Source: a virus (Duplodnaviria; Caudoviricetes). Taken from it: DNA of 64,000 bases. Location of the stretch: positions 163 through 64,162 of IMG/VR virus record IMGVR_UViG_3300012207_000003; one strand, written 5' to 3'. A program made the position numbers and the translations under genes. Of this stretch, positions 14,730-57,534 are shown piece by piece (position 1 is the stretch's first letter; every line of letters begins with the position of its first letter). A model generated the notes under the pieces. The model was given only the letters and a program-made list of their open reading frames with translations. It ran no database searches and was not told the origin of the DNA.

Positions 14730-15500
14730 ATGGAACAACAACAATTCATCCTCACAACTGAACAACTCGCACAAGCATTTGGAGTAACTCCTAAAATTAT
14801 TAGCAATAACTTTAATCGTCACATAGAAGACTTCCAGGAGGATATCCATTATTTTGTGGCAGAGGGCGAAAATCTCAAACCCTTTGACATCCTCTCAGAG
14901 AGGACTTCAAACCTTGAAGAGGACATTTCATCCTCTTTAAACAATGACATCCTCTCAAAGAGGACTTCAAAAAGAGGGGGAGCTAGAAAAAGATATCTCT
15001 GGACATTAAAAGGTGCATTTGTTCATGCGTGGATTTTAAAATCCCCAAGCGCAAAAACATCCTATGAAAAATTAATGGGACTTGCTGAAAATCCTCAAGT
15101 TCACTCAGATGTACAACAAGAAGTCACAAGATTAAATGCGCTCGTTGCCAAACTTCAAGATACGGTAGACATGTACATCGGAGCACTCAATCATGCAGCA
15201 GATGAAAATCAAAAACTCAAAAATCAAAAGCGACAAACAGGACTTCCTCCAACCTCTGTTATGGACATTGAAATGATCTTAAATCGCTTGCGCCGACGCT
15301 TGAAAGAAGAGCGACTTGACACAAAAGCGATTATGCAAGATATCGCACAGTTAGATGCTAAGGTTTCAAAGACGCTAGAAATAGAAGAGTCAAGCATGGA
15401 AGACAGTATGAAACAAGCTGAATTCCGCTCAACCATACAAGAACAATTCGCCCAACTCACTCAACCAATCACACTACCCCTGCTCGAATCCCCTCGTTAA
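14730..15500 (+). CDS. ORF6N-domain antirepressor-like protein with coiled coil
   Basis: ILTTEQLAQAFGV....I..NFNRH...F.EDIHYF...YLWT.KG. Confidence 0.8.
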   Translation: MEQQQFILTTEQLAQAFGVTPKIISNNFNRHIEDFQEDIHYFVAEGENLKPFDILSERTSNLEEDISSSLNNDILSKRTSKRGGARKRYLWTLKGAFVHAWILKSPSAKTSYEKLMGLAENPQVHSDVQQEVTRLNALVAKLQDTVDMYIGALNHAADENQKLKNQKRQTGLPPTSVMDIEMILNRLRRRLKEERLDTKAIMQDIAQLDAKVSKTLEIEESSMEDSMKQAEFRSTIQEQFAQLTQPITLPLLESPR

Positions 15501-24435: not shown

Positions 24436-24960
24436 ATGCAAGAAAATGTATCCCTTTCCAGAAATCAAGAGCGTTTCTTGCAATTGCTGTTACTTGGCAA
24501 GAACATAACCGCCGCTTCAAAAGAAGTCGGCATTAATCCAGTCACAGCGCATCGTTGGCTCAATACTCCTGTATTCCAGGAAGAGCGCAAACGCCGTGAA
24601 GCTGAGTTATCCAAGCTTGAACAGGAAGAGATAACTCGTATTCTCACTAGTGGCTATGCTCTCATGCATCGACGTGTCGAAGCTCTTGATAAACTCTCAA
24701 AGAAGCTAGAATCCTATTTAGAAGACGAGTCAAAAATCTGGCTTGCAGATGTGAAAGCAGTAGGGCTTGAACGTGTAGATCTTGTTCAATTCAATGCTGA
24801 CTTGTTCAAAGAATACCGCGCTACCTTTGCCGATCTTGCCAGCGAACTAGGCCAGCGTGTGAAGAAGACAGAGACAGAGCACAGTGGCGCAATTGATCTG
24901 ACAGGCGCAAAAGATAGATTACTCGGAAAACTCGCAACACTTCCAGATGATGAATCCTGA
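24436..24960 (+). CDS. terS: terminase small subunit (HTH)
   Basis: N-terminal HTH, helical body, EHSG motif; overlaps terL. Confidence 0.75.
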   Translation: MQENVSLSRNQERFLQLLLLGKNITAASKEVGINPVTAHRWLNTPVFQEERKRREAELSKLEQEEITRILTSGYALMHRRVEALDKLSKKLESYLEDESKIWLADVKAVGLERVDLVQFNADLFKEYRATFADLASELGQRVKKTETEHSGAIDLTGAKDRLLGKLATLPDDES

Positions 24961-26317
24961 AGAATACGCGTTTTATCGCAATTTCTCAAAGAAGTCAAAA
25001 GTCGAAAAGCTCGCATTTATTGCAACGCTTACAGACGATGAAGCAGTACGTTTACAATTTACCTGGCAAGCCTGGGCTAGGGATAAACAATTAACCCCTC
25101 CAGGGGCATGGGCAACATGGGTTATCATGGCCGGTCGTGGGTTTGGAAAAACACGAACAGGAGCTGAACAAACCCGTATCTGGGCCGAGGAAGATCCAAA
25201 CGCTCGTATTGCGCTTGTAGCGAGGACAGCCGCCGATATTCGTGATGTCATGGTTGAGGGTGAGTCTGGCATACTGGCTATATCCCCTCCCTGGTTTAAG
25301 CCACACTATGAACCATCCAAGCGTCGTTTGACCTGGCCGAATGGGGCGCAAGCTACAACCTACAGTGCAGAACAACCTGACCAATTGGCAGGGCCACAGC
25401 ATACAAAGTTCTGGGCAGATGAGAGAAGTACCTGGCAATACGATGAAACCTGGGATCAGCTTCAATTTGGTTTGAGGTTAGGCGCGAATCCGCAAGGCGT
25501 GGTCACAATGACACCTCGCCCTACCAAAGCGGTAAAGGCTCTTTTAAAAGACGAAACAACCGTTGTCACACGTGGTAGTACACGCGAAAACAAAGGGAAC
25601 TTAGCAAAGCGTTTCTACCGTGAAATCACTCGTAAATATGAGGGTACACGGCTAGGCAGGCAAGAATTAGAGGGCGAAGTCATTGAGGATGTAGACGGGG
25701 CATTGTGGAAACGCGAGGCAATGATTGAGCAGTTACGAGTCTATAAACATCCTGAATTGAAACGTATTGTTGTTGGGGTTGACCCGTCAGTGACAAGTAC
25801 AGAAGAGAGTGCTGAAACTGGTATTGTCATAGCGGGCGTAGGCATAGACGATCATGGTTATGTGCTGCAAGATAGGTCACTGCTTGCAAGCCCTAACGAG
25901 TGGGCAAAGGAAGTCATAGCAGGTTACTACCTGCTTGAAGCTGACAGGGTGATAGGAGAGGTCAATAATGGCGGTGACTTGGTAGAAACGGTGTTACGTA
26001 ACATCGACAAAGCTATTTCATATAAATCGGTACGTGCTACCAGGGGGAAACAACTCAGAGCAGAGCCAGTCAGTAGCTTTTATGAACGATCTTTAATACA
26101 TCATGTTGGCACATTCCCTGACCTCGAAGATCAAATGTGCTCATGGGTTCCAGGTGAGAAGTCGCCAGATAGGCTTGATGCACTCGTTTGGGCATTCACC
26201 GAGATGATGGTAGGTCAAGTACAGATAGGTGGCATGATGGTTGATACCGATACAAGAGAGCAAGAGGAGATGGAAGATGAGCAGGAAGAGCAATCGGCAT
26301 ACGCACTATTCAGGTAG
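24947..26317 (+). CDS. terL: terminase large subunit
   Basis: AGRGFGKT, FWADE, MTP, VGVDP, SPDRLDA. Confidence 0.95.
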   Translation: MMNPEEYAFYRNFSKKSKVEKLAFIATLTDDEAVRLQFTWQAWARDKQLTPPGAWATWVIMAGRGFGKTRTGAEQTRIWAEEDPNARIALVARTAADIRDVMVEGESGILAISPPWFKPHYEPSKRRLTWPNGAQATTYSAEQPDQLAGPQHTKFWADERSTWQYDETWDQLQFGLRLGANPQGVVTMTPRPTKAVKALLKDETTVVTRGSTRENKGNLAKRFYREITRKYEGTRLGRQELEGEVIEDVDGALWKREAMIEQLRVYKHPELKRIVVGVDPSVTSTEESAETGIVIAGVGIDDHGYVLQDRSLLASPNEWAKEVIAGYYLLEADRVIGEVNNGGDLVETVLRNIDKAISYKSVRATRGKQLRAEPVSSFYERSLIHHVGTFPDLEDQMCSWVPGEKSPDRLDALVWAFTEMMVGQVQIGGMMVDTDTREQEEMEDEQEEQSAYALFR

Positions 26318-26320
26318 TAG

Positions 26321-26641
26321 ATGATAGAGCAACAAGATGAGGCTTATCAGGCTCGTATCAAGCTTGTTGTTGGCCTTGTTGACTATTGGTTTCATCGTAA
26401 ACATCCAGGTTGGTATGGACTTGACCCTGATACCATGCAACCGGAGATGACAGAAGATGAAGCACTGGCCGCTATGAAAGAAGATGCCGAGCGGTTATGG
26501 GGAATGACAGATGAGCAATTGCACACGATGATGGATGCAACCCTGAATGACCTTATGGGGGTATCACCGTTACGCAATATGTTACCACATAAATCTAAGA
26601 TGACTTTTCCCATCAAGGTAAATCGATATATAGGGAGATGA
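26321..26641 (+). CDS. hypothetical protein
   Basis: In operon between terL and portal. Confidence 0.5.
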   Translation: MIEQQDEAYQARIKLVVGLVDYWFHRKHPGWYGLDPDTMQPEMTEDEALAAMKEDAERLWGMTDEQLHTMMDATLNDLMGVSPLRNMLPHKSKMTFPIKVNRYIGR

Positions 26642-26647
26642 TGGAAG

Positions 26648-28606
26648 ATGAGCAGGAAAAACCGACGTTCCAATTATCAACAAAATAAACCACGTCTTGT
26701 TACACAATCTCAATCATTGGATAATGAACAAATCTTCATACAACGTGGCAATCTTGCCCTGGTTGGTGAAGCACGTCCCCGCAAAACACCTGCTCCTCCA
26801 TCAGCTTCAAACAATCTCAGAAGCAAAGTACAATCCTTATCCCTTGACTGGGATGATAATGAAGCTCTCCAGATACAAGCTCAACGTCCTTTAACAGAAG
26901 CTGAACGTAAGGAAACGCTCTATAGCGTCTATGTTGGTAACACGTGGGTATCATCCTGTGTCGATGTCATCTCGAAACGTTTCACATCGGGCGGCTGGCA
27001 TTTAGAAGAAGTGGAAGAGGGCAAAGGGCAAGAAGCGAATAAAGACATCCTTAAAAAGTTCTTGTTGGATATCAACGACGATGAAGACTTTCTACAATTC
27101 CTCCGTGGGGCAGCAGATGACCTTGATATCTATGGCGAAGCATACGCTGAAATCATCCTGGGTAGTGATGGACTGCCAGCGCAGCTCGTCTCAATTGATT
27201 GTATCACGATGACCTATGAATTAGACGAACATGGGAACATCACTGGCTACACACAAACGCTTGTCAAATCAAATAGAACAGTCAAGTTCAAACCTGAACA
27301 GATTATCAGATGGTGGTTTCCCTCTAAACGCGCTCGCAAAGTAGCCTTTAGTCCCATTGAAAAGATGGTCAATCCAACCTATGCCGATAAGAGCATGGTT
27401 GACTGGGTACACATGTTCTTTAAGAAAGGTACTCGACCTAGTACTTGGATTAAGCTAGGGGACGACAGTGATATAGATGATGCTCGTCAATACCTCAAAT
27501 TCTACAAAGAGAACTATACAGGCGCGCAAAATGCACATACCCCACAAATTGCCTACGGCGGAGCTGAGATTAATGAATACGGCAAAGGCTCAATTGATGT
27601 TGACTTTGGCAAAGGTCGCTTATTCACGCGTGAAGAGGTACTAGCAGGCTATGGTGTCCCTCCAGCGTGTATCGGCATTATCGAAAGCGGTAACATTGGC
27701 AGTGGCACAGGGGAAGATCAAGACAAGGCACTCAGGAACAATACCGTTGACCCTCTCAAACAATTGATACTCGAAAAGCTCAATCGGCGGATTGTTGTAG
27801 GGGCATTTGGCATCACCGATTGGGTTGTCACAACCAAGTATGCTGACTATCGCAGTGATGTTGAGATATCCGAAGTACAATCAAAGCGTATTCAGAATGG
27901 CCTTTCAACCCCAAATCAGGAACGCATTGATTCAGGTAAGGCTCCCTATCCAGAGACAGGCGATACCCCTACCATTATTTCAGGTCGTGAGATCATACCT
28001 CTTGAACGATTGGATGATCTAGCAGACGAACAAAGGCAAGCAGCGCAAGTTCAGATTGATACCTCGAAAGCCGCACTTGATCTGGCGCAAACACAAGCAG
28101 ACAAAGCTAAACATCCTGACCCTGTAGCCCCTGCTCTGAATGGACAACAAAACAATGGACAACCTCCTATGAAAGCAGGTCAAGTGCCAGGCGCAGCGAT
28201 AGCACAAGGCACGCGGGCAGGGGAAAGCAAAGAGGAACTTCCAAAGGAACAAGAACAGCCTAAAGAAAGCGTATCTTATACCAAACGGCAACAGTTCGGC
28301 ATAGGCGCATGGCAACAAGCCGATCCGATCATTCAGCAACGGCTTACTGATATCCAATCTCGCGTCAAGCTCAAATGGAAGTTAGGCAAGAATGCCTGTT
28401 ATGCTTGTCGCATGAACGCTGGTGCTATCGTTTCATTAGGTGAATCATTCCCAAGTGGCGCATTAATAGCACCGTGCCATGATGGATGTGAATGCGAAGT
28501 AGAAGAGATATTCCTTGAAGAGGGAAGCCAACACTCTTTTTTCGTGAAAGCCTCCGACAATGGAGGCAACCAATCCCAGAACAACTCAAATGCGAACAAG
28601 AATTAG
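26648..28606 (+). CDS. portal protein (HK97-like) with C-terminal MuF-like Cys/His domain
   Basis: WVSSCVDVI, DL.IYGEAY, YGVPP..IG, TPNQER; C-terminal ACYAC..N...FPSG..APCHDGCEC. Confidence 0.88.
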   Translation: MSRKNRRSNYQQNKPRLVTQSQSLDNEQIFIQRGNLALVGEARPRKTPAPPSASNNLRSKVQSLSLDWDDNEALQIQAQRPLTEAERKETLYSVYVGNTWVSSCVDVISKRFTSGGWHLEEVEEGKGQEANKDILKKFLLDINDDEDFLQFLRGAADDLDIYGEAYAEIILGSDGLPAQLVSIDCITMTYELDEHGNITGYTQTLVKSNRTVKFKPEQIIRWWFPSKRARKVAFSPIEKMVNPTYADKSMVDWVHMFFKKGTRPSTWIKLGDDSDIDDARQYLKFYKENYTGAQNAHTPQIAYGGAEINEYGKGSIDVDFGKGRLFTREEVLAGYGVPPACIGIIESGNIGSGTGEDQDKALRNNTVDPLKQLILEKLNRRIVVGAFGITDWVVTTKYADYRSDVEISEVQSKRIQNGLSTPNQERIDSGKAPYPETGDTPTIISGREIIPLERLDDLADEQRQAAQVQIDTSKAALDLAQTQADKAKHPDPVAPALNGQQNNGQPPMKAGQVPGAAIAQGTRAGESKEELPKEQEQPKESVSYTKRQQFGIGAWQQADPIIQQRLTDIQSRVKLKWKLGKNACYACRMNAGAIVSLGESFPSGALIAPCHDGCECEVEEIFLEEGSQHSFFVKASDNGGNQSQNNSNANKN

Positions 28607-29178
28607 AATCACTGTTAGCTATAATTATCAAGAGTCAACGAGATGGCAAGTCTTTTAAAGATAGACAGATAGATGATGTTATTATTCGTCATGTTGCTGA
28701 ATACCTACAGCAAGCGCAGGTACTCGGCAAGCAGTATGCTGCCAAATACGTAGAATTACCTAGTCGAGAGGCTGTTATTGGTGCTGAACTAGGTAGTTCT
28801 CTCCTGGACAGAGCAAAGAATCTGATTCAACGCGCTCTTTCCTGGGCAAAGGACTTGTTTATCAGTAAAGTAGATGACCTGGGAGATGATGCCAGTTCAG
28901 ATGATATTGAAAGTGCATTAGAGGATGTGTCTATCACCGTAGCTGAAACTTTGGGACTGACTGAAGTTCAAAGTGTGGTTGAAGAGACAGTTATGAATGA
29001 ACTGCAAGCATCAGGCATAGCACAGGTGGAATGGGTCAATGAACCTGGCGCATGTCCTATTTGTTTAGATAATGCCGATGCTGGGCCTATCAACATTGGT
29101 GACACGTTTCCGAGTGGTGACAGTCAAGCGCCAGCGCATAATCGTTGTAGGTGTCATGTAGCACCTGTAGGGAGTTAA
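28540..29178 (+). CDS. MuF/gp7-like minor head domain, probably expressed by -1 frameshift from the portal gene
   Basis: Frame open from 28519 with no ATG/GTG/TTG until 28855; ACPIC..N...FPSG..APAHNRCRC. Confidence 0.7.
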   Translation, partial: FRESLRQWRQPIPEQLKCEQELESLLAIIIKSQRDGKSFKDRQIDDVIIRHVAEYLQQAQVLGKQYAAKYVELPSREAVIGAELGSSLLDRAKNLIQRALSWAKDLFISKVDDLGDDASSDDIESALEDVSITVAETLGLTEVQSVVEETVMNELQASGIAQVEWVNEPGACPICLDNADAGPINIGDTFPSGDSQAPAHNRCRCHVAPVGS

Positions 29179-29206
29179 CAGCGAACAAGGGAGTGAGTAA
29201 AGAGAA

Positions 29207-29563
29207 ATGAGTGAATTAGGGCATTTTGGAGATAGGATTGTATATGAGCTTCAGCGCAATGCAAATGCATTAGAGCAAAGCAATAAACGCAATCAGGAAT
29301 GGATAGAACTGAATAAGCAATGGCATGAAGAGGATGTAAAGAGGCAAGAGCAATGGCATAATGAAGCCGAAACGCTGAATGAATTACGATATCAGGAACG
29401 ACTTGAATTGGATAGGCAAGTCTTTTTGTATCAGTGTAAATGTCACGATGAAGCTGAACGATTAAACGAACAACGCTATCAAGAGCATCAAGAGCATGAA
29501 AGCGCATTGCTGAAAGCGTATGTTGCCAATCTTCTATCAAAAGCTACAGAATCTAAAGAATGA
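29207..29563 (+). CDS. helical repeat hypothetical protein
   Basis: EAETLNELRYQE / EAERLNEQRYQE repeats. Confidence 0.5.
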   Translation: MSELGHFGDRIVYELQRNANALEQSNKRNQEWIELNKQWHEEDVKRQEQWHNEAETLNELRYQERLELDRQVFLYQCKCHDEAERLNEQRYQEHQEHESALLKAYVANLLSKATESKE

Positions 29564-29690
29564 AACGCTTTTATATGCCTTGCGTTTATGGCTCTGGTTT
29601 GCATCACGCGGAAGTAACACAGAGCCGTTTTCGTGGTTATTGCATCAGTATGACATCAGAGAAGCGATATGCAAGGGGGAAGACATTTGA

Positions 29691-29936
29691 ATGAGTAAGA
29701 AAAAACAGAAGAAGTATTCAAAAGATACGCATTTCAAACACTATGCAGCGCAAATCTGGCAAGACATGGAGTCAGCTTTTCGTGTAGAGAATGTGAGATT
29801 TTATGATGCCAGGGCTAGAAATGTAGCGCATGATGTACTGGCAAAGAGCCTATACGATTTTGCGGATTATTGCACATCTAATATGAAATTTACGTTTGCT
29901 AAGGATATTCCGGATTTGAGTGAGGATAATAGATGA
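29691..29936 (+). CDS. hypothetical protein, paralog family A
   Basis: DTHF...LA..LYDF...DIPDLSE. Confidence 0.55.
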   Translation: MSKKKQKKYSKDTHFKHYAAQIWQDMESAFRVENVRFYDARARNVAHDVLAKSLYDFADYCTSNMKFTFAKDIPDLSEDNR

Positions 29937-30914
29937 GCATAGACAAGAAAGAACCTCAACCTATTATGTTTCCAGGAACACAAATCGGTATTTTAGATGT
30001 TAGTAACAGGCGTCTCACACGTGAGGATGTGCAACGCATCGTCTTTGAAAAAGTCTCTGAGATTTTGTATCAATTGTTGCGTTCTGAAGAGCAGATAAGC
30101 ATTTCCAGTATGTCCTTTGCAGACTTTGATGCATTCTTGCAGCGTGTGATGTGTACGACTACAGAAGAGGAAGTATGAGCTTTCAGGGATTGAATGAACT
30201 TTTCAAAACAACCACATCCGATCACACTGAACCGATAAACTGGGTTGAGCTTGATAAGATGATAGATCAAGTGAAATCTGAACAAACATCAGAACCATAT
30301 AGCTTTATTATGGCTCCTTGGATGCATAAGGAGATGTATATGCTTAATGGTTTGCAATATGTTTCTAAACATGCAACACATCCAATCCGTAAAGTACATC
30401 TAAGAAGTATTGCAGCAAGGCGTAAGGCTAGAAAGAGGCAATTAGAACGCCTGTATAATCATCGGTATGGAGTAGTAGCATATGCCAATTGATCTTATCG
30501 CTTTGTATTTGAAAATATATACGCAATGCTTGCAATCGCCAGATGGTATTTATGAATGTGATACTGCCCGTTTTTACCAGGACACAGGATTTACGACATT
30601 TAACGTGCTCTCTCCACTTCTGAAAAATGGTTCTATTGAAGTTAAAGCCGTTGGCAAAGAACATCCTGATAGCAATTATCAGATCACGGTAAAAGAGGAA
30701 TTGAGACATGCTACGATTGATTAATCAGTATTTCACCTGTCCAACATGGCATCGTCCTTTGATTGCGCCAGTTTCTAATGGCATTGAGATACGATGCAGA
30801 TCATGTAAGCAAGTACATTTTATTGCTCGTTCACATCTTGAAAAAGCCTGGAATGATCTTGAGATTGCAGAAAGAGCAACCAAACCGCTACTTGCAATCG
30901 TTGTAGGCATGTAA
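29933..30914 (+). CDS. four coupled small hypothetical genes (29933-30178, 30175-30492, 30482-30724, 30708-30914)
   Basis: Overlapping starts and stops; the last has a Com-like zinc ribbon (C..W...IEIRCRSC). Confidence 0.45.
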
Positions 30915-32687: not shown

Positions 32688-32741
32688 CGCACTTTAAAAT
32701 ATTCACATAAGGGATATGTGGAAAGGGAAGAAGAAAGAACT

Positions 32742-48744: not shown

Positions 48745-49266
48745 ATGGGTGCTGCAACATGTCAGGCGCAAATAGGAACAGGCTCTAGCGTTTCATGGGC
48801 AAATGCTGAAAGTGGGGGAGTCTTCAATCGCGAAGATTCACTAGTGGGTACAACTCCAACGCCGATCCCCACAACTACAGGAACCAATTTCTCATACATC
48901 AAGAACTTTGTACTTGCAGTAACAGTGACAGGAACAACAGCAATCACGAATAGGCGTATCAACATGTCAGGCGCGGCGGCTACTGGTATGCAATTGTTCT
49001 GGAAAGCTCTTGCCGTTGCCAGTTATGCTCAATCAGCTAGTGGAAATAAGCCAACTGATTCAGGTTCTAATGGTGCTACCCCTGCGGGTTATACGCTTAT
49101 GACAACTTCAACTGCTCAGTACGATAATACCAGTCATGTCACAAGTGCATCAGGGCCGAATGGGACAATGGCTGTGTGTGTAGAGGGGATTGATAACACC
49201 TATACGGCGGGGGCCAGTACAAGCGCAACAACTCCATCACTTGTTCTCAGCTACGATGAGGCTTAA
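48745..49266 (+). CDS. tail-associated structural protein
   Basis: Thr/Ser-rich beta protein ending YDEA. Confidence 0.55.
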   Translation: MGAATCQAQIGTGSSVSWANAESGGVFNREDSLVGTTPTPIPTTTGTNFSYIKNFVLAVTVTGTTAITNRRINMSGAAATGMQLFWKALAVASYAQSASGNKPTDSGSNGATPAGYTLMTTSTAQYDNTSHVTSASGPNGTMAVCVEGIDNTYTAGASTSATTPSLVLSYDEA

Positions 49267-49941: not shown

Positions 49942-52900
49942 ATGCCAACAATTCATGATTGGACATTTGTAGCTGACGGGCCGTTAGGTACAACCCTCGG
50001 CTTTAATAATTATTCCAGTATCCAACCCCTCGCCTCGCAAGCCTGGACGGATATAGCTGCGCTTGGTATCTCTCGTGTACGCTTGAATATCGTGACTGCC
50101 TCTTTCATGCCCACTCCTGGCTCTTTTAACTGGGGAGGGCTTGACGCGCTTGTGCAAGCCGCCAATCAGCATGGCATCAGGGTTACTTTGATAGCACGTG
50201 GGTACAAGGGTGACAGCCCTACCAACAATAACCCCGCGCCTTGTGGTTCAAATACCAACCCTCACTATTTTTCATCGGTCAATACCTATAAAACCTTAGC
50301 AATAGCCTTATGTCAACGCTATAGTGGCGATGGAAACTCCAAGAACGCCATAGCCAATGATGGTTCTGGCAAGAAACTTCAAGTTGATTGTATCGAAATT
50401 GGCAATGAAGAGTTTGATGTCTATGCAGGCACGAATGCCGATTGTCGCAACCCCCTGAGATATGTGTACTACTTGAAGCAAGTCGTCCCTGCTATGAGAG
50501 CATCAGTAGCGAGTGGTGGCGGCGGATGGAATCCATCAGGCAACTTTCAGGCCAGGATTGGCTGTTGGGGTTTATGGTGGCAGCAACAAGCGCATGTCAA
50601 GTACGTGGTCAATACGTTCTACAATCCAAATTATGATCTTTCAAATCCCTTATACAGCACATTCAACCCAACTGGCAACGGGTCAAGCGTCATTGGCTAC
50701 AACAGTGGCTTAGGCGTGCAGATGCTCGACTACCTGAACTTCCATAACTACTCTTACCCAGCGCAAAATGTCACACTGGCACAGTACGGAGTTGACCAGG
50801 AATTAATAGATATCAAGGCAGTTCAGGCTTTCTACAATGATACACTCACTCCTATCTGGATGACAGAATTTGGAGCGGACGGGCCATGTGCGGCAACTGC
50901 TGGCAGTGGGCAAACAGCGCAAGAGGCGAGCTTAGAAGCAACGCAATCAACGTACTACGCTGCAAATGCCGATGGCTCAGGCATTGGAGCCTTAGCCACG
51001 GCTATGAACCACGGAGCGCAACACATCGATATCTTCACGATCAATTATAATGCTCCAAATGCGACAAGTAACTATACAGGGCAAGTCAAAGCCATTGCCT
51101 GTGCTGTCTCAGGCGGTGGATTTAAGCGGTTCAAAGCATTTACGGCGATTCAGAACTTCTTGACATCGAACGGGGCAACGTGGGCGGCGAAACCAGTTCC
51201 TAATGGGTTTGGGCCTACGTCAGCTCCTCCCTCTCCTCCCTCTTCAATCACGTTTTATTTGGGCAAGGTACTTGATACCTCACCTGCTCTGCTTGCAACA
51301 TTTAATGATGTGAGTACGGCATCGGGCGGTTCTCAGGTAGGGCAAGATACGCCGATTGATGGATATACAGGCTATGGGGAATGCTACCCAAATCAAGCAC
51401 TTTCCCCCTGGCCTGCATACGCTTCTGAACCTCTTGTTCCATTTTCCAATAAAGGCAATATCTGGCCCGTTGCACTTGGTAATCAAGCGATCTTAAATGG
51501 CAATTGGACTCCTACTTTAAGAGCAACAGTGATTAATGGTACAGGCAATATCACAGCCGATTTGTTAGTAAGAGTGTGGGTATGGAACAGTGTTACCAAA
51601 GTTGCTACCAAGTATGGAGTGTTGCGCTTAAACGGAAATACCATCACGTCAACTTCAACAAACTTTGTATTTAGCGCGGCGGGTTTAGGTGTGATTGCAG
51701 GCGGGCCAGATGATTATATCGTCTTTGATACGCTGGCAAACATCACGGCCAATTCCAATCCAGCAGGCACAAAGCTACGTCTCAACTTCTCTTCTTCAAG
51801 CACACAAGGCAATGCCAACGGCCAGATAACTGCTCCTGGCATGGCTCCATCGCGTCTCATTCCTATGGCATCGGCACTACAGGGCACATTCACGCGTACT
51901 ATCTCTATGGCCTCTGCCCTCTCTTTCCAACGTGTTATCCCGATGGCCAGCGCAACATCAGGAAGTCCACATAGAGTTATCCCGATGACTTCTAGCGTGT
52001 GTGGAGCGGCTCTTGCCAATCCTTACGTGCAAACTATCGCAAGCACTGACTTTATGAGTACATCAGGGCCGCATTTGATCTATAGAGGGCAACAAATCAA
52101 GCTCTATGGAACGACTATCTACCTAGCTACTCAGGGAGGGGCTAATACCTGGTTACATACCGATGCCAGGGCGGTATTAGATGATCTTTTCACACAAGCC
52201 TATAACAACGGCATCGGCATGATTAGGATAACAGACTACTGGGACGGTTCTAACATCACAGCATTTGACTGGCCTCAACTCTGGGCCAATATCGACTATT
52301 GCGTGACCAGAGCGCAACAACTCGGAATGTTCATTCAAATGGACATTAGCGCCTATAAGAACGTGCTGATAGCTAATGCAATTGATTGGACGGTAGCTGC
52401 CAATTGGCATGATTGGATAACGTTTGTAGGCTATCACTTTAGGAATACCGCTACTTCCATCTGTTGGTACTCTATATTAGGAGAGCCATTTGTACCTGCA
52501 AATCAAGCAGATTGTGATGCACTCGCTTTGTTCTATGGGACGATGTGTAACACGCTCTATGCCGCTGATACGTCACATCTCATTCAGGCAGGGGGATTGA
52601 CACATATTAACGATGTAGTGGGAGGTCTCACAGATCCGTCATGGTGGTATCAAGTATTTACCTTGCCTCATAATGATTTGCCTGCTTACAAAACCTACTC
52701 AACTCAGGATTGTGTCTATCTCGCAACTATGCGGTCTATCATGACTACGTACAACATTAATAAGCCCCTGGTAAACAACGAATTTGGCAACCAGCAATCA
52801 CAAGGGGATCAAGTTTTCCCTGCTTTTTCTAATACTTTGAATGGAACAATCACAGCAGGCGCAACGATAACTGCGCTTGCCTTGCATACAGCCATTTCAG

Positions 52901-55900
52901 GACAAACGATCATAGCAGGAACGATTATAGCCGTGTCTGGCACTGAGAACTATGTAGTGCTCACTGATACTTCAAGCGGTACTTCACTGCCTGTCAAGAG
53001 CGTGACTGCTCAACAGAACCATGCTAATAACGATGCTATTTCAGCATTAGGGTTTGGAGATGAAGATCATAGTTTAGCTGATACTGCCTATAATTATTTC
53101 AGTGTGGTACTAGGCTTAACAAACACTGTTAAGCACTGGAATAAAACCGCTCGAACCATCACGATAGATTCGTGTATTGGAGGCGATCAAGCAGGGACGG
53201 TTAGCTATGTGGTATGGAATTTGGGTTACTTAGTTGGGCCAGATCACTATGACCTTTCAGCTAATACAGGCCTTCCCCAGAGTTGGGCTTTATATGGCCG
53301 CCACGCGCGTTTAGACGGTTACGTGCCTGTCATGGCTGGCACATCCTTTCAAATCACGGTTGGAGGAGTGCCTGTTGTCTTTAATGAGGATACTTTTCAT
53401 ATCACGTACAAAGAAAATGAAGCATGGCGATGCCAGTTTACCATTCTTGATTATGATGGAAACCTTGTATTTCCTTATCGCTCTCAGGTCAGAGTTACTG
53501 ACTACAACACGCAAGGCGTCTTATTTACTGGTTTCCTGATTGAAGATAACTTTGATAAATCCAATGCACGTCAAAACAAATTGATAGAGCATAAGATTGA
53601 TTGTATAGGCAACGAATCCAAGCCTATGAAACGGACTTCCAACCGCTTGTATACAGTGCCATTTCCGGCGGCGCAAGGTGTCATGAACATGCTTGACGAT
53701 GTACTCGTTGCTGAGGGTGTCACTGCCAAGTATGCCTATAGCGAAGTGACCACCTTTCCTGATTGGATTGCAGGCACACTTTCAGGTACAACCGCTTCTA
53801 CTAATCTTCCTAATGGCGATTTAGAACTGACAGCGGCGGGAAGTGTTGTTACTGTGTCAGAAGCGACAACAAGTGACTTTGCAGCAGGCACACTTACGAA
53901 TGTTCAGTCTGCTTCCAACGCTTTAACGCTCAAATCACATACTGGCATATCGATGACTGCTACCTGTACAGGTGGAGTTGGAGATGCCCACTTATATTGG
54001 ACGATCTATCCTGGCAACATCGTGCAAGCGAATGACTGGGTACTCTCTTACTACATGTGGATAGACCCCAGTAGCCCTAAGATCATGGCGGGGATAGATG
54101 TTGTGTATACCGATGGTTCCAGGTTGAATACCTTAAACTCAGGGCTAGGGGAATTCGATCAGCATGGCATGGGTTCTAATCCTGCCAATGACCTCTCAGG
54201 TTGGGCAGATGGACGTTGGGAGTATCGTCAGATAGGCTTGCACGCCTATACTGGGAAGACGATTAACTATATCGCAATGGGGATTGAGGGAGATCAAGCG
54301 GGGAAGTATGGTGTCTACTTCCATGATGTAAAAGTGACCTATACGAGCACAACTGAGATAGATGTGTCAGGCACGTTCACAGGCGGGGGCATTGTTTCTA
54401 ACGCTGGCTACAATACCATTGTGGTAGCATCTCCAACCGTGTATGAGCAAACAGGCAATCGTGTCAGTTCATCGCATAGCTTGACGAGTGTTGGCATTTA
54501 TCAGAACAGTCTTGCAAGTTGGATTGTGAATACTCCTTCAGATACCACGTTCACACTTGAAACGAGCTTTGATGGAGGGGCAACATGGCAAGCTGCTACC
54601 AATAAAGCCAAACTAGGGATAATCACACCTGGCACGTATTTAAATGGCATCTCGCTGTTACTCAAGGAAAGCATGGCTATCACAGGGAATACCCCCCTGC
54701 TCAGTCCATCGCTCAGTCAAGTGGCGGTGTCAATTGTGCCTGGCTATACGAGCACACAAACCGATGTGAAATATACACGGACATCGGATTCAGATTTCAA
54801 TGCTGGCACACTCACGAACTTAGTTGCAGCTTCTAATTCAGGATTAGGCTTAACTGGTTTCTGGCGTGACTGGAAAGATAGTGATACCAACTCGCTTTCT
54901 AGCGATCAAACCGTCTATGGAACTGCTTCACCGACGCAAACACTGAACGCCAATCAGTTGAAAGTACAGACAAACACCGGAGCAGATGCACGTGTCAAGA
55001 TGGTTGGAGCAGGTGCAACATGGCAAAATTTCACGCTATCTGTAAATGTTCAGATACCAACCGCCGGAACTGGCAACATTGGCGTAGTGTACAGAACAAC
55101 AGGCTGGCAAAATAATGACAATAGCTTTGCCTATGCGGTAGAAGTCTCTTCAACGGCTGTTACTTTAATCAGAGGTACTAATTCAGGAAGTGGGGGAGGC
55201 ACTCGCACACAAATAGCCACACAAGCTCTTACTTTAACAGTTTCAGGCTTTTATACCTTGAAAGTAGTTGTCAACAGCGTTGATGCATCGCACACAAACC
55301 ACACGATTTATATAGATGATGTGCCATATCTTACTTCAACCGACAATACCTATAACGCGGCGGGTAGTATTGGTATGCGCCTCTACAATGGTTCAGGTGT
55401 GCAGATCACGGGCTATTATGGCTCTCTCGCAATTCTGAATGCTTTAACAGGACAATATGTTTCTGAAAATCTCTCACTCAATGCAGTAGGGACGGTTGGA
55501 ACTTCAAGGATATTCTGGGAAGATGTAGCCCCTGGCAGTTCTTCCAGGCTCTTTGAAACATCGATCAATGGCGGTAGTACCTGGCAAACAGCAAGCTATG
55601 GTCAAGAGATAGTAGGACTACCCGCAGGAACCAATGTCACAGGCATCAATCTGAAAGTACGTATCACAGAAACAGCAGGAAGCGAGCAAGATCAACCTAC
55701 CGTCTATGGGTATACCGCGTGGGTGACTTCGCGGTTTTCTTCATCTGGTACGTATATCTCCCCCGCTCTTTCCCTGGCTACCGTCGGGCAAGTGGGGAAT
55801 ACGCTTGTGAGTTGGGCGGGACTGCAACCGTCAGGAACAACAATCACGGTTGATAGCACGATCAATAATGGTTCAAGTTGGCAAACGAATGTAGTTCCAG

Positions 55901-57534
55901 GTTCACAGATTGCAGCAGGAAGCAATCAATATGCGGGACTTGGAACTATTGGAAATATCAATGTACAACCCGATCCAACAGTAGATGATTTTTCCTCTGA
56001 TACCAGTTCTAACTATACCTCGACCAATGCGACAGGTGGAAGTGTTGCAACATGGACGCCAGATGTTACTAATAGCCGCGTAACCGCTACAGGCGGGGCA
56101 AATGCTGTCTATCTATACACAAGCATCTCTTCTCAAAATATGGACATCTTATGCGATATGACGCAATCTGAGAGCGGGGGTTTATCCTGGTGTTATAGCA
56201 GTGGCACAAGTTATTATAGCCTTTCGGTTGCTGATAACCAATCAACAGTACTAACTCCTAACACCATCACGCTGTATAGAGATGGTGTCTCAATAGGAAG
56301 TACATCAATCAAGTTTGTGAGAGGGATTATCTACCGTATTCGAGTAACGAGCATAGGCGGCGTGATAAATGTGTACTTTGATGGTGTGGATGTTATTTCC
56401 TATAACGATACATCAGCTTTAGTAGCGGGGCAAGCAGGCTTGTTTACCAATGGAGGTACATCACAGTTTATCGGCGTGTGGGTTCAGCCTCTTGGGGATG
56501 ATGTATCGCTTATCAATACGAAAGTTCGTATCAATCTTGCCTCAACTGACGCCTCATTTACCCCGCAGATACAAACACTTTCATTTGGCGCATATGGCCC
56601 GCAGATTAATACAGGTATTTTGATGCCAAGTGCTGACTACAGGCAAACCTTTGTCAGTGCTAATCTTGACGATATGGCAAAACAGAGTAACTACAAATGG
56701 CATATTGACCAACTCAACGAGTTTGAATTTACACAAGCGCAAGCAAGGCCTGCACCCTGGGTACTGCAATCGAATACCCTAAGTCAACCTAGCGATATTG
56801 AACTTGATAGCAATTTGGCGATAGAGACATTAGGGGACTTGTACAGGAACCGCCAGATTTTAACGGGCGTTTCAAACTCTGCGTTTTTTCAAGATAGTTT
56901 CACAGGAAATGGCACACAAACATCATTCCCTCTGAGGTATCCAATAGCTCCTGGCACTATACCAGTAGTTACCCTTGATGTGAAATTGAATGACATCCCT
57001 CAAAACGTTGGCTTGAAAGGTTCTACTGGCAGTGATTGGTACTATGCTGAGAACGATTTGGTGATAGCGCAGGATGTGAATGCGCTTCCTCTTGATGCTA
57101 ACGATACCTTGATTATCTCCTATACAGGCGCGTTTGTGGATGATGTGATTGTCAACAATGATGCAGCGCAAGCCGCGCTTCAACTTGTAGAGGGTGGGAC
57201 GGGCATTGTAGAGGCTGTAGAGGATGTGTCAAAGAGGAATATGAGCTTTGCAGCGGCGGTCACGTATGGCAATCAGTTATTGACGAGGTACTGTATTTCA
57301 GGTCGTACAGCCACATTTAAGACGTACAGGAATGGACTGGCAGTAGGGCAAATGCTGGCAACCAACATTCCAGAGGAGAACTTGAATTATGCACAGCTTT
57401 TAGTACATTCTGTTGACCTGGGAATGCAGACACAACCAAACAATACGGTTCTGTATAACTATGTAGTAACTTCAAGTGAGTTACCCGTACTGTCAAGTTG
57501 GTCTAAGTTGTTAGCGTCGGGCTTATTGGATTAA
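49942..57534 (+). CDS. giant tail tip/hub protein with two N-terminal glycoside hydrolase domains and multiple beta-sandwich modules
   Basis: GH 1: IEIGNEE...WMTEFG; GH 2: SILGEP...NNEFG; hub-like segments (LFTGFL; LDDMAK..YKWHID; YRNRQIL). Confidence 0.8.
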   Translation: MPTIHDWTFVADGPLGTTLGFNNYSSIQPLASQAWTDIAALGISRVRLNIVTASFMPTPGSFNWGGLDALVQAANQHGIRVTLIARGYKGDSPTNNNPAPCGSNTNPHYFSSVNTYKTLAIALCQRYSGDGNSKNAIANDGSGKKLQVDCIEIGNEEFDVYAGTNADCRNPLRYVYYLKQVVPAMRASVASGGGGWNPSGNFQARIGCWGLWWQQQAHVKYVVNTFYNPNYDLSNPLYSTFNPTGNGSSVIGYNSGLGVQMLDYLNFHNYSYPAQNVTLAQYGVDQELIDIKAVQAFYNDTLTPIWMTEFGADGPCAATAGSGQTAQEASLEATQSTYYAANADGSGIGALATAMNHGAQHIDIFTINYNAPNATSNYTGQVKAIACAVSGGGFKRFKAFTAIQNFLTSNGATWAAKPVPNGFGPTSAPPSPPSSITFYLGKVLDTSPALLATFNDVSTASGGSQVGQDTPIDGYTGYGECYPNQALSPWPAYASEPLVPFSNKGNIWPVALGNQAILNGNWTPTLRATVINGTGNITADLLVRVWVWNSVTKVATKYGVLRLNGNTITSTSTNFVFSAAGLGVIAGGPDDYIVFDTLANITANSNPAGTKLRLNFSSSSTQGNANGQITAPGMAPSRLIPMASALQGTFTRTISMASALSFQRVIPMASATSGSPHRVIPMTSSVCGAALANPYVQTIASTDFMSTSGPHLIYRGQQIKLYGTTIYLATQGGANTWLHTDARAVLDDLFTQAYNNGIGMIRITDYWDGSNITAFDWPQLWANIDYCVTRAQQLGMFIQMDISAYKNVLIANAIDWTVAANWHDWITFVGYHFRNTATSICWYSILGEPFVPANQADCDALALFYGTMCNTLYAADTSHLIQAGGLTHINDVVGGLTDPSWWYQVFTLPHNDLPAYKTYSTQDCVYLATMRSIMTTYNINKPLVNNEFGNQQSQGDQVFPAFSNTLNGTITAGATITALALHTAISGQTIIAGTIIAVSGTENYVVLTDTSSGTSLPVKSVTAQQNHANNDAISALGFGDEDHSLADTAYNYFSVVLGLTNTVKHWNKTARTITIDSCIGGDQAGTVSYVVWNLGYLVGPDHYDLSANTGLPQSWALYGRHARLDGYVPVMAGTSFQITVGGVPVVFNEDTFHITYKENEAWRCQFTILDYDGNLVFPYRSQVRVTDYNTQGVLFTGFLIEDNFDKSNARQNKLIEHKIDCIGNESKPMKRTSNRLYTVPFPAAQGVMNMLDDVLVAEGVTAKYAYSEVTTFPDWIAGTLSGTTASTNLPNGDLELTAAGSVVTVSEATTSDFAAGTLTNVQSASNALTLKSHTGISMTATCTGGVGDAHLYWTIYPGNIVQANDWVLSYYMWIDPSSPKIMAGIDVVYTDGSRLNTLNSGLGEFDQHGMGSNPANDLSGWADGRWEYRQIGLHAYTGKTINYIAMGIEGDQAGKYGVYFHDVKVTYTSTTEIDVSGTFTGGGIVSNAGYNTIVVASPTVYEQTGNRVSSSHSLTSVGIYQNSLASWIVNTPSDTTFTLETSFDGGATWQAATNKAKLGIITPGTYLNGISLLLKESMAITGNTPLLSPSLSQVAVSIVPGYTSTQTDVKYTRTSDSDFNAGTLTNLVAASNSGLGLTGFWRDWKDSDTNSLSSDQTVYGTASPTQTLNANQLKVQTNTGADARVKMVGAGATWQNFTLSVNVQIPTAGTGNIGVVYRTTGWQNNDNSFAYAVEVSSTAVTLIRGTNSGSGGGTRTQIATQALTLTVSGFYTLKVVVNSVDASHTNHTIYIDDVPYLTSTDNTYNAAGSIGMRLYNGSGVQITGYYGSLAILNALTGQYVSENLSLNAVGTVGTSRIFWEDVAPGSSSRLFETSINGGSTWQTASYGQEIVGLPAGTNVTGINLKVRITETAGSEQDQPTVYGYTAWVTSRFSSSGTYISPALSLATVGQVGNTLVSWAGLQPSGTTITVDSTINNGSSWQTNVVPGSQIAAGSNQYAGLGTIGNINVQPDPTVDDFSSDTSSNYTSTNATGGSVATWTPDVTNSRVTATGGANAVYLYTSISSQNMDILCDMTQSESGGLSWCYSSGTSYYSLSVADNQSTVLTPNTITLYRDGVSIGSTSIKFVRGIIYRIRVTSIGGVINVYFDGVDVISYNDTSALVAGQAGLFTNGGTSQFIGVWVQPLGDDVSLINTKVRINLASTDASFTPQIQTLSFGAYGPQINTGILMPSADYRQTFVSANLDDMAKQSNYKWHIDQLNEFEFTQAQARPAPWVLQSNTLSQPSDIELDSNLAIETLGDLYRNRQILTGVSNSAFFQDSFTGNGTQTSFPLRYPIAPGTIPVVTLDVKLNDIPQNVGLKGSTGSDWYYAENDLVIAQDVNALPLDANDTLIISYTGAFVDDVIVNNDAAQAALQLVEGGTGIVEAVEDVSKRNMSFAAAVTYGNQLLTRYCISGRTATFKTYRNGLAVGQMLATNIPEENLNYAQLLVHSVDLGMQTQPNNTVLYNYVVTSSELPVLSSWSKLLASGLLD

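Follow-up and report, generated by a model that had tools for sequence, protein, structure and literature searches.

A Candidate Programmed −1 Frameshift between the Portal Gene and a MuF-like Domain in an Uncultured Tailed Phage from Soil

The Portal Locus and Its Overlapping −1 Frame

We analyzed a 64,000-nucleotide stretch (hereafter the window; positions 163 to 64,162 of IMG/VR virus record IMGVR_UViG_3300012207_000003) of a tailed phage, and addressed the 3' end of its portal gene, where a second frame encoding a domain similar to MuF head proteins overlaps the portal frame at −1. The window is nearly the whole of this 64,162-bp record, which has direct terminal repeats; the phage is uncultured and originates from soil metagenomes. 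The portal is the unique vertex for DNA entry into and exit from the capsid. A first-pass annotation of the sequence had interpreted the locus as a programmed −1 frameshift from portal to MuF. The coding features are as follows, the two upstream neighbors being given last.

26648..28606, + strand: portal gene in the 0 frame, with a short product of 652 amino acids (aa) and the stop codon TAG at 28604-28606, from the list of open reading frames (ORFs) and the translation
28253..28504, + strand: an in-frame MuF-like C-terminal Cys-motif domain, termed MuF1, at portal residues 536-619, from phmmer
28519..29178, + strand: the −1 frame, with its stop codon at 29176-29178, encoding a MuF/head-morphogenesis-like domain termed MuF2, from the ORF list, PHROG and fold
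24947-26317, + strand: terminase large subunit, which precedes the portal in the head module
between the large terminase and the portal, + strand: a 106-aa ORF of the head module

The portal ORF matched PF04860 (Phage_portal) over residues 101-426 (E = 3.1e-31; 109 bits, cut-off 39.1) and the portal protein profiles phrog_12 and phrog_2662. It is classed as an HK97-type portal by its PF04860 score, which exceeds the gathering score, and by its place after the large terminase. The first-pass annotation had also described an in-frame first MuF domain within the portal. A MuF-like region is indeed present: residues 125-209 of the −1 frame protein aligned with portal residues 536-619 in phmmer (E = 2e-7), and the reverse comparison of MuF1 with the −1 frame protein gave 31% identity. 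However, this region is merely the C-terminal Cys-motif part of the domain, and it is missing in some relatives that keep the signal described below (loci L002 and L008). The full MuF domain sits in the −1 frame, and the portal and a full MuF do not share a single uninterrupted frame here.

The −1 frame overlaps the portal gene and directly follows it, a place just after the portal as in MuF genes. It is closed upstream by a TGA at 28516-28518, and its first ATG, GTG or TTG is the TTG at 28855, which lies 112 codons past 28519 and 106 codons past the T-run of the slip signal; the claim that about 110 codons from 28519 contain no start was thus correct. The predicted products of 652 and 843 aa likewise agree with the 652 and ~843 aa anticipated earlier. 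The motif WRQP.PEQL.CE lies inside the overlap with the portal gene and is also found in remote stand-alone homologs. Because of this motif and of the TGA at 28516-28518, the entry of a ribosome into the −1 frame must fall within 28519-28560.

Coding Status and Fold of the Start-Less Frame

An AlphaFold2 model of MuF2, built from a 43-sequence alignment, placed all 213 residues in one domain with helices from residue 14 (predicted local distance difference test, 93; predicted template modeling score, 0.89). Compared with BFVD, the model gave 69 fold matches at E <= 0.001, with query-normalised template modeling scores up to 0.64; the named matches were mostly "head morphogenesis" or "minor capsid" proteins, with some long portal fusions. 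Three PHROG profiles of minor head or head morphogenesis proteins (phrog_115, phrog_2841 and phrog_4728) matched residues 136-217 at E values of 5e-7 to 2e-6. Residues C173, C176, H201, C204 and C206 were invariant across the 43 aligned sequences, and we take an invariant C-terminal Cys/His motif to be a hallmark of the MuF family. No Pfam family was found at E <= 0.01 for the −1 frame protein of the window. PF04233 (Phage_Mu_F) reached only E = 0.031, in two of eight aligned relatives and short of the gathering score, and PF25310 (VG15) matched six of the eight (best E, 1.1e-4), the sole tabulated member scoring 22.3 bits, below the 26-bit cut-off. Since PF04233 was not reached, we describe MuF2 as MuF-like by PHROG and fold and not as a proven member of that family. 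Against the PDB, the MuF2 sequence retrieved designed helical bundles and weak matches alone, and a fold search with the model retrieved no solved structure at E <= 0.001.

The coding status of the start-less part was addressed by comparing, between related loci, the stretch bounded by the portal stop and the first start of the window. The ratio of nonsynonymous to synonymous substitution rates (dN/dS) of this stretch was 0.12-0.36, similar to that of the remainder of the frame, with dS saturated in 6 of the 21 pairs and no value obtainable from the identical pair L012/L003. The stretch therefore behaves like the rest of the frame, and it is under purifying selection. In addition, no stop codon interrupts the −1 frame in any of the seven distinct junctions that we collected.

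These data bear on the proposal that only a 107-aa C-terminal fragment is made from the TTG at 28855, or that the gene is decaying after the loss of its start. Gene callers do list truncated ORFs at such loci (107 aa in the window, 161 aa for protein P0073 of L001, and many of 150-200 aa), and the many database calls of 150-200 aa begin within the MuF2 domain; judged from the proteins and not from their DNA, the latter are putatively gene-caller output from a start-less frame. The fragment, however, would leave out a part whose dN/dS is about that of the rest, which is free of stops in 7/7 junctions, and whose helices belong to a single compact domain predicted with confidence. Moreover, the first canonical start is not conserved, because its position ranges from +16 to +106 codons. 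We give the fragment a very small chance, and the decaying gene was rejected on account of the purifying selection and the folded domain.

The Candidate Slip Signal in the Window

Four elements around the overlap make up the candidate signal.

28517..28527, + strand: a purine-rich run, GAAGAGGGAAG, resembling a Shine-Dalgarno (SD) sequence, with a GAGG core that ends 13 nt before the heptamer
28537..28543, + strand: slippery heptamer T_TTT_TTC in the X_XXY_YYZ register, with the portal codons TTT at 28538-28540 and TTC at 28541-28543
28544..28549, + strand: spacer GTGAAA of 6 nt, a length found in 7/7 junctions, with two variable positions
28550..28567, + strand: putative stimulatory hairpin GCCTCC-gacaat-GGAGGC with a 6-bp stem and a 6-nt loop, from folding and comparison

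Across 28532-28543 the portal codons are CAC TCT TTT TTC, and both the T TTT TTC heptamer in the portal frame and the hairpin 6 nt past it lie exactly where the first-pass annotation had placed them. The hairpin folds at −12.1 kcal/mol (z = −2.9), which was equalled by 2 of 200 shuffles. The SD-like run, which had been counted as part of the signal, is present at its position but is not a conserved component of it: the run is carried by five of the seven junctions (window, L010, L001, L012 and L003), all of them with a MuF1-type upstream module, and it travels with this module, whereas L008 has AGGAG 7 nt upstream, at another spacing, and L002 has no such element. Where present, the run 13 nt upstream may help the slip.

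How often such a motif occurs was assessed in the stop-to-stop ORFs of at least 150 codons in the window, with hairpins sought 4-9 nt downstream. This census contained 44 in-phase X_XXY_YYZ heptamers in 15,595 codons, of which 5 had a perfect hairpin of at least 6 bp, and the chance expectation of heptamer plus hairpin in the 28-codon overlap is ~0.01 sites. The motif by itself is not strongly beyond chance; because it is not rare, the weight of the argument rests on its position and on its conservation in relatives.

The four further in-phase heptamers in long ORFs with a perfect hairpin of at least 6 bp, all on the + strand, are TTTAAAC at 14936, TTTAAAA at 32693, AAATTTC at 55026 and GGGTTTA at 56178. 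In the tail region, a 2530-aa ORF (49942-57534) follows a 173-aa ORF (48745-49266), and no tail-chaperone frameshift pair was evident in 48.5-50.1 kb of the window.

Conservation of the Signal among Related Junctions

Protein and pattern searches yielded seven distinct junctions: the window, L010, L001 (the same as L011), L012, L003, L002 (the same as L007) and L008 (the same as L009 and L013). Their MuF2 proteins range from 84% down to about 50% identity to that of the window, and L008 is rich in G and C, with flanks that are nearly unalignable. The heptamer is invariant in 7/7 junctions and stands in the slippery portal phase in six, the portal of L003 ending just upstream of it. Six of the seven also share the architecture of the overlap: the portal frame stops 16-22 codons past the T-run, the −1 frame opens just 1-8 codons ahead of it (one codon in L002), and canonical starts are absent for 16-106 codons after it (106 in the window and 16-81 in the five others). 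The predicted fusions would be 843, 857, 933, 1015, 1018 and 1134 aa long. The first-pass annotation had looked to homologous portal loci for a kept heptamer plus hairpin, and both are kept together with a start-less −1 frame in these six junctions; homologs that are all in-frame fusions or independently started, which would have spoken against it, were not what we found, an own ATG being present only in L003.

Searches of genome contigs with protein patterns and with the pattern of the 35-nt signal gave nothing, and viral contigs searched with a wider alignment and the signal pattern gave no loci beyond those known. A DNA search of a phage collection with window positions 26000-30000 returned zero matches, that is, no DNA-level relative among cultured phages. 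A tblastn search of phages with the −1 frame protein returned 64 records, all matching the C-terminal 80 residues alone; none reached a coverage of at least 80%, and no cultured relative is available. The distant portal relatives L004, L005 and L006, tried as a test of the signal, were uninformative, since a second MuF frame is missing there and the MuF C-motif occurs solely in frame.

A homopolymer at the junction raises the question of whether a sequencing or assembly error has split a plain in-frame fusion with a T7 run or a run of other length. Homopolymers are error-prone, and our evidence comes from assembled sequences. Nevertheless, T6 is found in 7/7 junctions from different metagenome assemblies, one of them at ~52% protein identity, and contigs of four soil runs from four studies cross the run with zero inserted or missing letters. 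Diverged variants are among these site-crossing contigs (records 3, 5, 9, 10, 14, 15, 20 and 21). This check used Logan contigs, not raw reads, and some of the runs may be the window's own source; the homopolymer indel considered in the first-pass annotation was thus not seen in the seven loci or in the contigs of the four runs, at the level of contigs and not of reads. An error is next to negligible as an explanation, and it was rejected on the constancy of T6 across junctions and contigs.

At the RNA level, the stem is GCCTCC/GGAGGC in five sequences and GCCGCC/GGCGGC in L001 and L008, so that its fourth pair is U-A in the five and G-C in the other two, and pairing is preserved because both sides changed; the same double change, T>G at 28553 together with A>C at 28564, occurs in contigs of runs X1 and X9. 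Over the seven sequences, 42/42 stem cells are paired, versus 29-55% when the 3' partner is slid, and RNAalifold on 111 nt returned the hairpin as the sole conserved structure. The alignment hardly varies between the start of the T-run and the last base of the hairpin, and this includes L008. Invariant nucleotides amount to 83% in the first 36 nt versus 6-56% in the 36-nt bins that follow. Where a degenerate amino acid of the −1 frame is invariant in its column, the codon is invariant too at 6 of 9 such columns in the first 12 codons, which hold the signal, versus 8 of 75 elsewhere (Fisher p = 4.7e-4). These patterns indicate that the signal is conserved as RNA and not as protein alone. Taken together, the junction has the makeup of a canonical −1 cassette, with a heptamer in phase, a downstream structure, a start-less coding −1 ORF and conservation at synonymous sites.

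The same features bear on slippage of RNA polymerase on T6, by which one added U in some transcripts would lead to a conventionally translated fusion. In its favor, the site is a homopolymer, and translation would again yield the 843-aa protein. The run, however, is only six long and of invariant length in the seven junctions, whereas in bacteria transcriptional slippage usually becomes productive on runs of ~8-9 or more. The covarying hairpin at 6 nt and the exact X_XXY_YYZ phase are typical of slippage by ribosomes and not of slippage in transcription. Polymerase slippage is therefore, in our view, quite improbable.

Apparent Exchange of Upstream Modules at the T-Run

The portal sequence just upstream of the T-run differs among the junctions. 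It is the end of MuF1 in the window, L010, L001 and L012. L002, which has no MuF1, shows the end of a 2H-phosphoesterase domain instead (protein P0008 has PF13563/PF02834), and L008 an unrelated helical module. Further modules are joined at the T-run in protein P0007 and in loose-ended contigs. Contigs of runs X2, X3 and X9, as well as P0007, change to unrelated upstream sequence right at the T-run (window 28535-28543). Because sequences switch exactly there, the conserved 35-nt signal appears to be a joint for the exchange of portal C-terminal modules.

A 2H phosphoesterase/LigT-like domain (PF13563, PF02834) is inserted in the portal C-terminal region of close relatives, and the window is without it. 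The loci that bear it are L002:3953-6181, L003:1-2007, L010:733-3201 and L012:256-2724, with portals of 742-822 aa versus 652 aa here. If virion-borne, this phosphoesterase could be an injected enzyme.

Separate, In-Frame and Putatively Recoded Layouts

A protein search over 1.84 billion representatives returned 1520 proteins at E <= 0.001. Among them, MuF2 occurs as a separate gene with its own Met (P0074, P0076, P0082, P0083 and P0089) and as the C-terminal domain of in-frame proteins of 810-988 aa (P0075, P0084, P0100, P0113 and P0116). The single-frame P0084 contains ...ASFFRASRLREW... across the corresponding region. Both frames of L008 align to P0075, the 0-frame end to residues 526-592 and the −1 frame to residues 602-809, which makes P0075 a natural in-frame counterpart of the predicted product. 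Judging from these comparisons, the full set of layouts that a recoding site should leave appears to exist among remote relatives: separate, in-frame and, putatively in the calls of 150-200 aa, recoded.

One junction shows how close two of these layouts lie. L003 has caATGAtc and its twin L012 has caATTAtc, and nothing else separates the two over 5009 aligned bases; the G/T base lies in L003:2004-2007 versus L012:2649-2652, which correspond to window 28531-28534. The G creates both a portal stop TGA and an overlapping MuF2 start ATG (ATGA) 7 nt past the GAGG core, with GAAGAGGGAAG serving in L003 as the ribosome-binding site, and the resulting MuF2 protein has 220 aa. The base thus looks like a one-nucleotide toggle between a frameshift layout and a two-gene layout. 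The ATTA type is found in all four soil runs and ATGA in none (in contigs); the G of L003 could be a real allele or an error alike. A single mutation thus suffices for a two-gene layout, which is probably viable, so that a covalent portal-MuF link would not be indispensable. The heptamer and hairpin of L003 are inherited and therefore no evidence of function in that locus.

L003 also speaks for MuF2 as a separate protein, made from a non-canonical start behind the SD-like GAAGAGGGAAG or by termination-reinitiation, with the T-run and hairpin as mere coding sequence. At or beside the position of its ATG, L012 has ATT and L010 and L002 have ATC, and remote MuF2 homologs are stand-alone genes. 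However, the window has ACA CTC, L001 has TCA AGA and L008 has CGC ACG at those positions, none of them near-cognate; L002 has no SD-like run; and the first canonical start lies 16-106 codons downstream, within the folded domain. A separate start would also leave unexplained the single slippery phase behind different modules, the covariation of the stem and the frozen synonymous sites. We regard it as improbable.

Proposed Mechanism

We proposed that a programmed −1 ribosomal frameshift takes place at the 3' end of the portal gene, and in our judgment this is very probably the case; the comparison of junctions supports the interpretation made in the first-pass annotation. A ribosome would pause with TTT in the P site and TTC in the A site (28538-28543) and the hairpin 6 nt downstream at the mRNA entrance. 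A fraction of ribosomes would then slip back by one base, with both tRNA-Phe re-pairing to UUU UUU, resume in the −1 frame at CGT (28543) and read to 29175, whereas those that do not slip would end the 652-aa portal 20 codons on. The slipped product would be an 843-aa portal with a full MuF (SPP1 gp7-like) domain at its C-terminus, its junction running from ...SQHSFF in the 0 frame to RESLRQWR... in the −1 frame. The slip itself, its rate and its purpose we infer; the purpose may be a covalent tether of MuF to a constant minor share of the twelve subunits in the portal, by analogy with SPP1, where gp7 reaches the procapsid in few copies by binding the portal.

Several points weigh against this interpretation. 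With 6 bp and −12 kcal/mol the hairpin is a small one, some junctions are without the SD-like run, and heptamer plus hairpin occur together five times among the window's long ORFs. The covariation consists of one stem pair only; its score is reached by 24 of 500 column shuffles, and as many covarying pairs as observed by 257 of 500. Some of the conservation among nucleotides could be explained by the conserved −1 peptide FFRES.RQWRQP together with dual coding, and the T-run is partly a protein feature, because in-frame homologs also have FF there. Only six distinct junctions are of the frameshift type, all from soil metagenomes, and these are not independent, since they are related to each other. 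The ATT and ATC codons of L012, L010 and L002 could permit a degree of independent initiation, and free MuF2 is probably functional too, the two-gene layout of L003 being workable. Finally, a look-up of RNA sequencing runs listed none that contains this stretch.

Comparison with Known Frameshifts and Portal-MuF Arrangements

Programmed frameshifts in phage structural genes are textbook knowledge for tail chaperones and for some capsid and tail-tube proteins. The −1 frameshift of the lambda G/GT tail chaperones, reportedly described by Xu, Hendrix and Duda in 2004, and that of SPP1, both long-tailed phages, resemble the present case in a −1 slip late in a structural gene, toward its 3' end, a short major and an extended minor product in a fixed ratio, and a conservation by position rather than by sequence. 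They differ in the gene pair, which here consists of the portal and a MuF head protein, so that the short product is a structural dodecamer and not a chaperone, and in the extension, which here is a whole independently folding domain that elsewhere is also a separate gene. In Escherichia coli dnaX, the heptamer is A_AAA_AAG with an SD 10 nt upstream, and the −1 shift is enhanced there by an internal SD at a distance of 10-14 nt upstream. Our locus and dnaX (tau/gamma) share the succession of an upstream SD-like run, an X_XXY_YYZ heptamer and a hairpin ~6 nt downstream. In dnaX, however, the shifted frame stops almost at once and gives the shorter product, whereas here it adds 211 residues; and the heptamer here is U_UUU_UUC, with an SD-like run 13 nt upstream that is absent in some relatives.

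The same heptamer, UUUUUUC, is the site proposed for the −1 slip in genes 17.5/17.5*, which encode the tail chaperones of SPP1, and SPP1 gp7, the MuF prototype, is described as binding the portal gp6, entering the procapsid in few copies and supporting the start of infection (PMC6316719). Similarly, portions of PMC4066793 describe UUY codons as highly shifty and motifs with homogeneous X and Z as more shift-prone; the text of that paper, apart from its figures and supplements, has no explicit mention of U_UUU_UUC shiftiness in E. coli. As in our locus, the MuF-like gene of SPP1 directly follows the portal gene, but gp6 and gp7 are separate proteins that bind non-covalently, whereas the link here is predicted to be covalent. 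In-frame portal-MuF fusions are reported in Microbacterium phages of clusters EA3/EA5/EA8 and EB (PMC7302621, in part), and gene 3 of Arthrobacter phage Sonali is annotated as a "portal and MuF-like fusion protein". These actinobacteriophage fusions likewise combine portal and MuF-like minor capsid functions in one polypeptide; they differ in that every subunit is fused, whereas here only slipped products would be, so that plain and extended subunits are predicted to coexist.

In agreement with the earlier statement that no portal frameshift has been characterized, full-text literature searches, which did not extend to subscription journals and supplements, found no published frameshift in a portal gene. 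The word "portal" was not found in the searched part of the recoding review of Atkins et al. (2016), PRFect lists MuF-like proteins only together with VIP2 fusions, and the portions consulted of the Microbacterium paper (PMC7302621) contain in-frame portal-MuF fusions only. Thus, what appears to be new is a canonical −1 cassette at a gene pair for which we found none in print.

Implications for Portal Function and Annotation

Beyond this locus, we lean toward the view that portal-to-MuF −1 shifting is a general and so far undescribed class of recoding in tailed phages, comparable with G/GT, that sets the number of MuF-tethered (and cargo-bearing) subunits per twelve; that the 35-nt signal is a joint for the exchange of modules (MuF1, 2H phosphoesterase and others); and that a single base (TTA/ATT to TGA/ATG) toggles between a layout fused by frameshift and one of two genes. 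Annotation at present either misses the start-less ORF or records a truncated gene of 107-161 aa in its place. The ATGA single-base variant would offer a natural control for comparing fused with unfused MuF. Because MuF proteins or portal C-termini of relatives carry enzymes such as 2H phosphoesterases, the dosing of such cargo and its delivery with the DNA could follow from the same mechanism. If the frameshift is true, one gene would give rise to a mixed dodecamer in which a set minority of subunits pulls MuF into the capsid, with symmetry-breaking portal extensions inside it, and a translational ratio would take the place of the non-covalent recruitment of MuF by the portal in SPP1.

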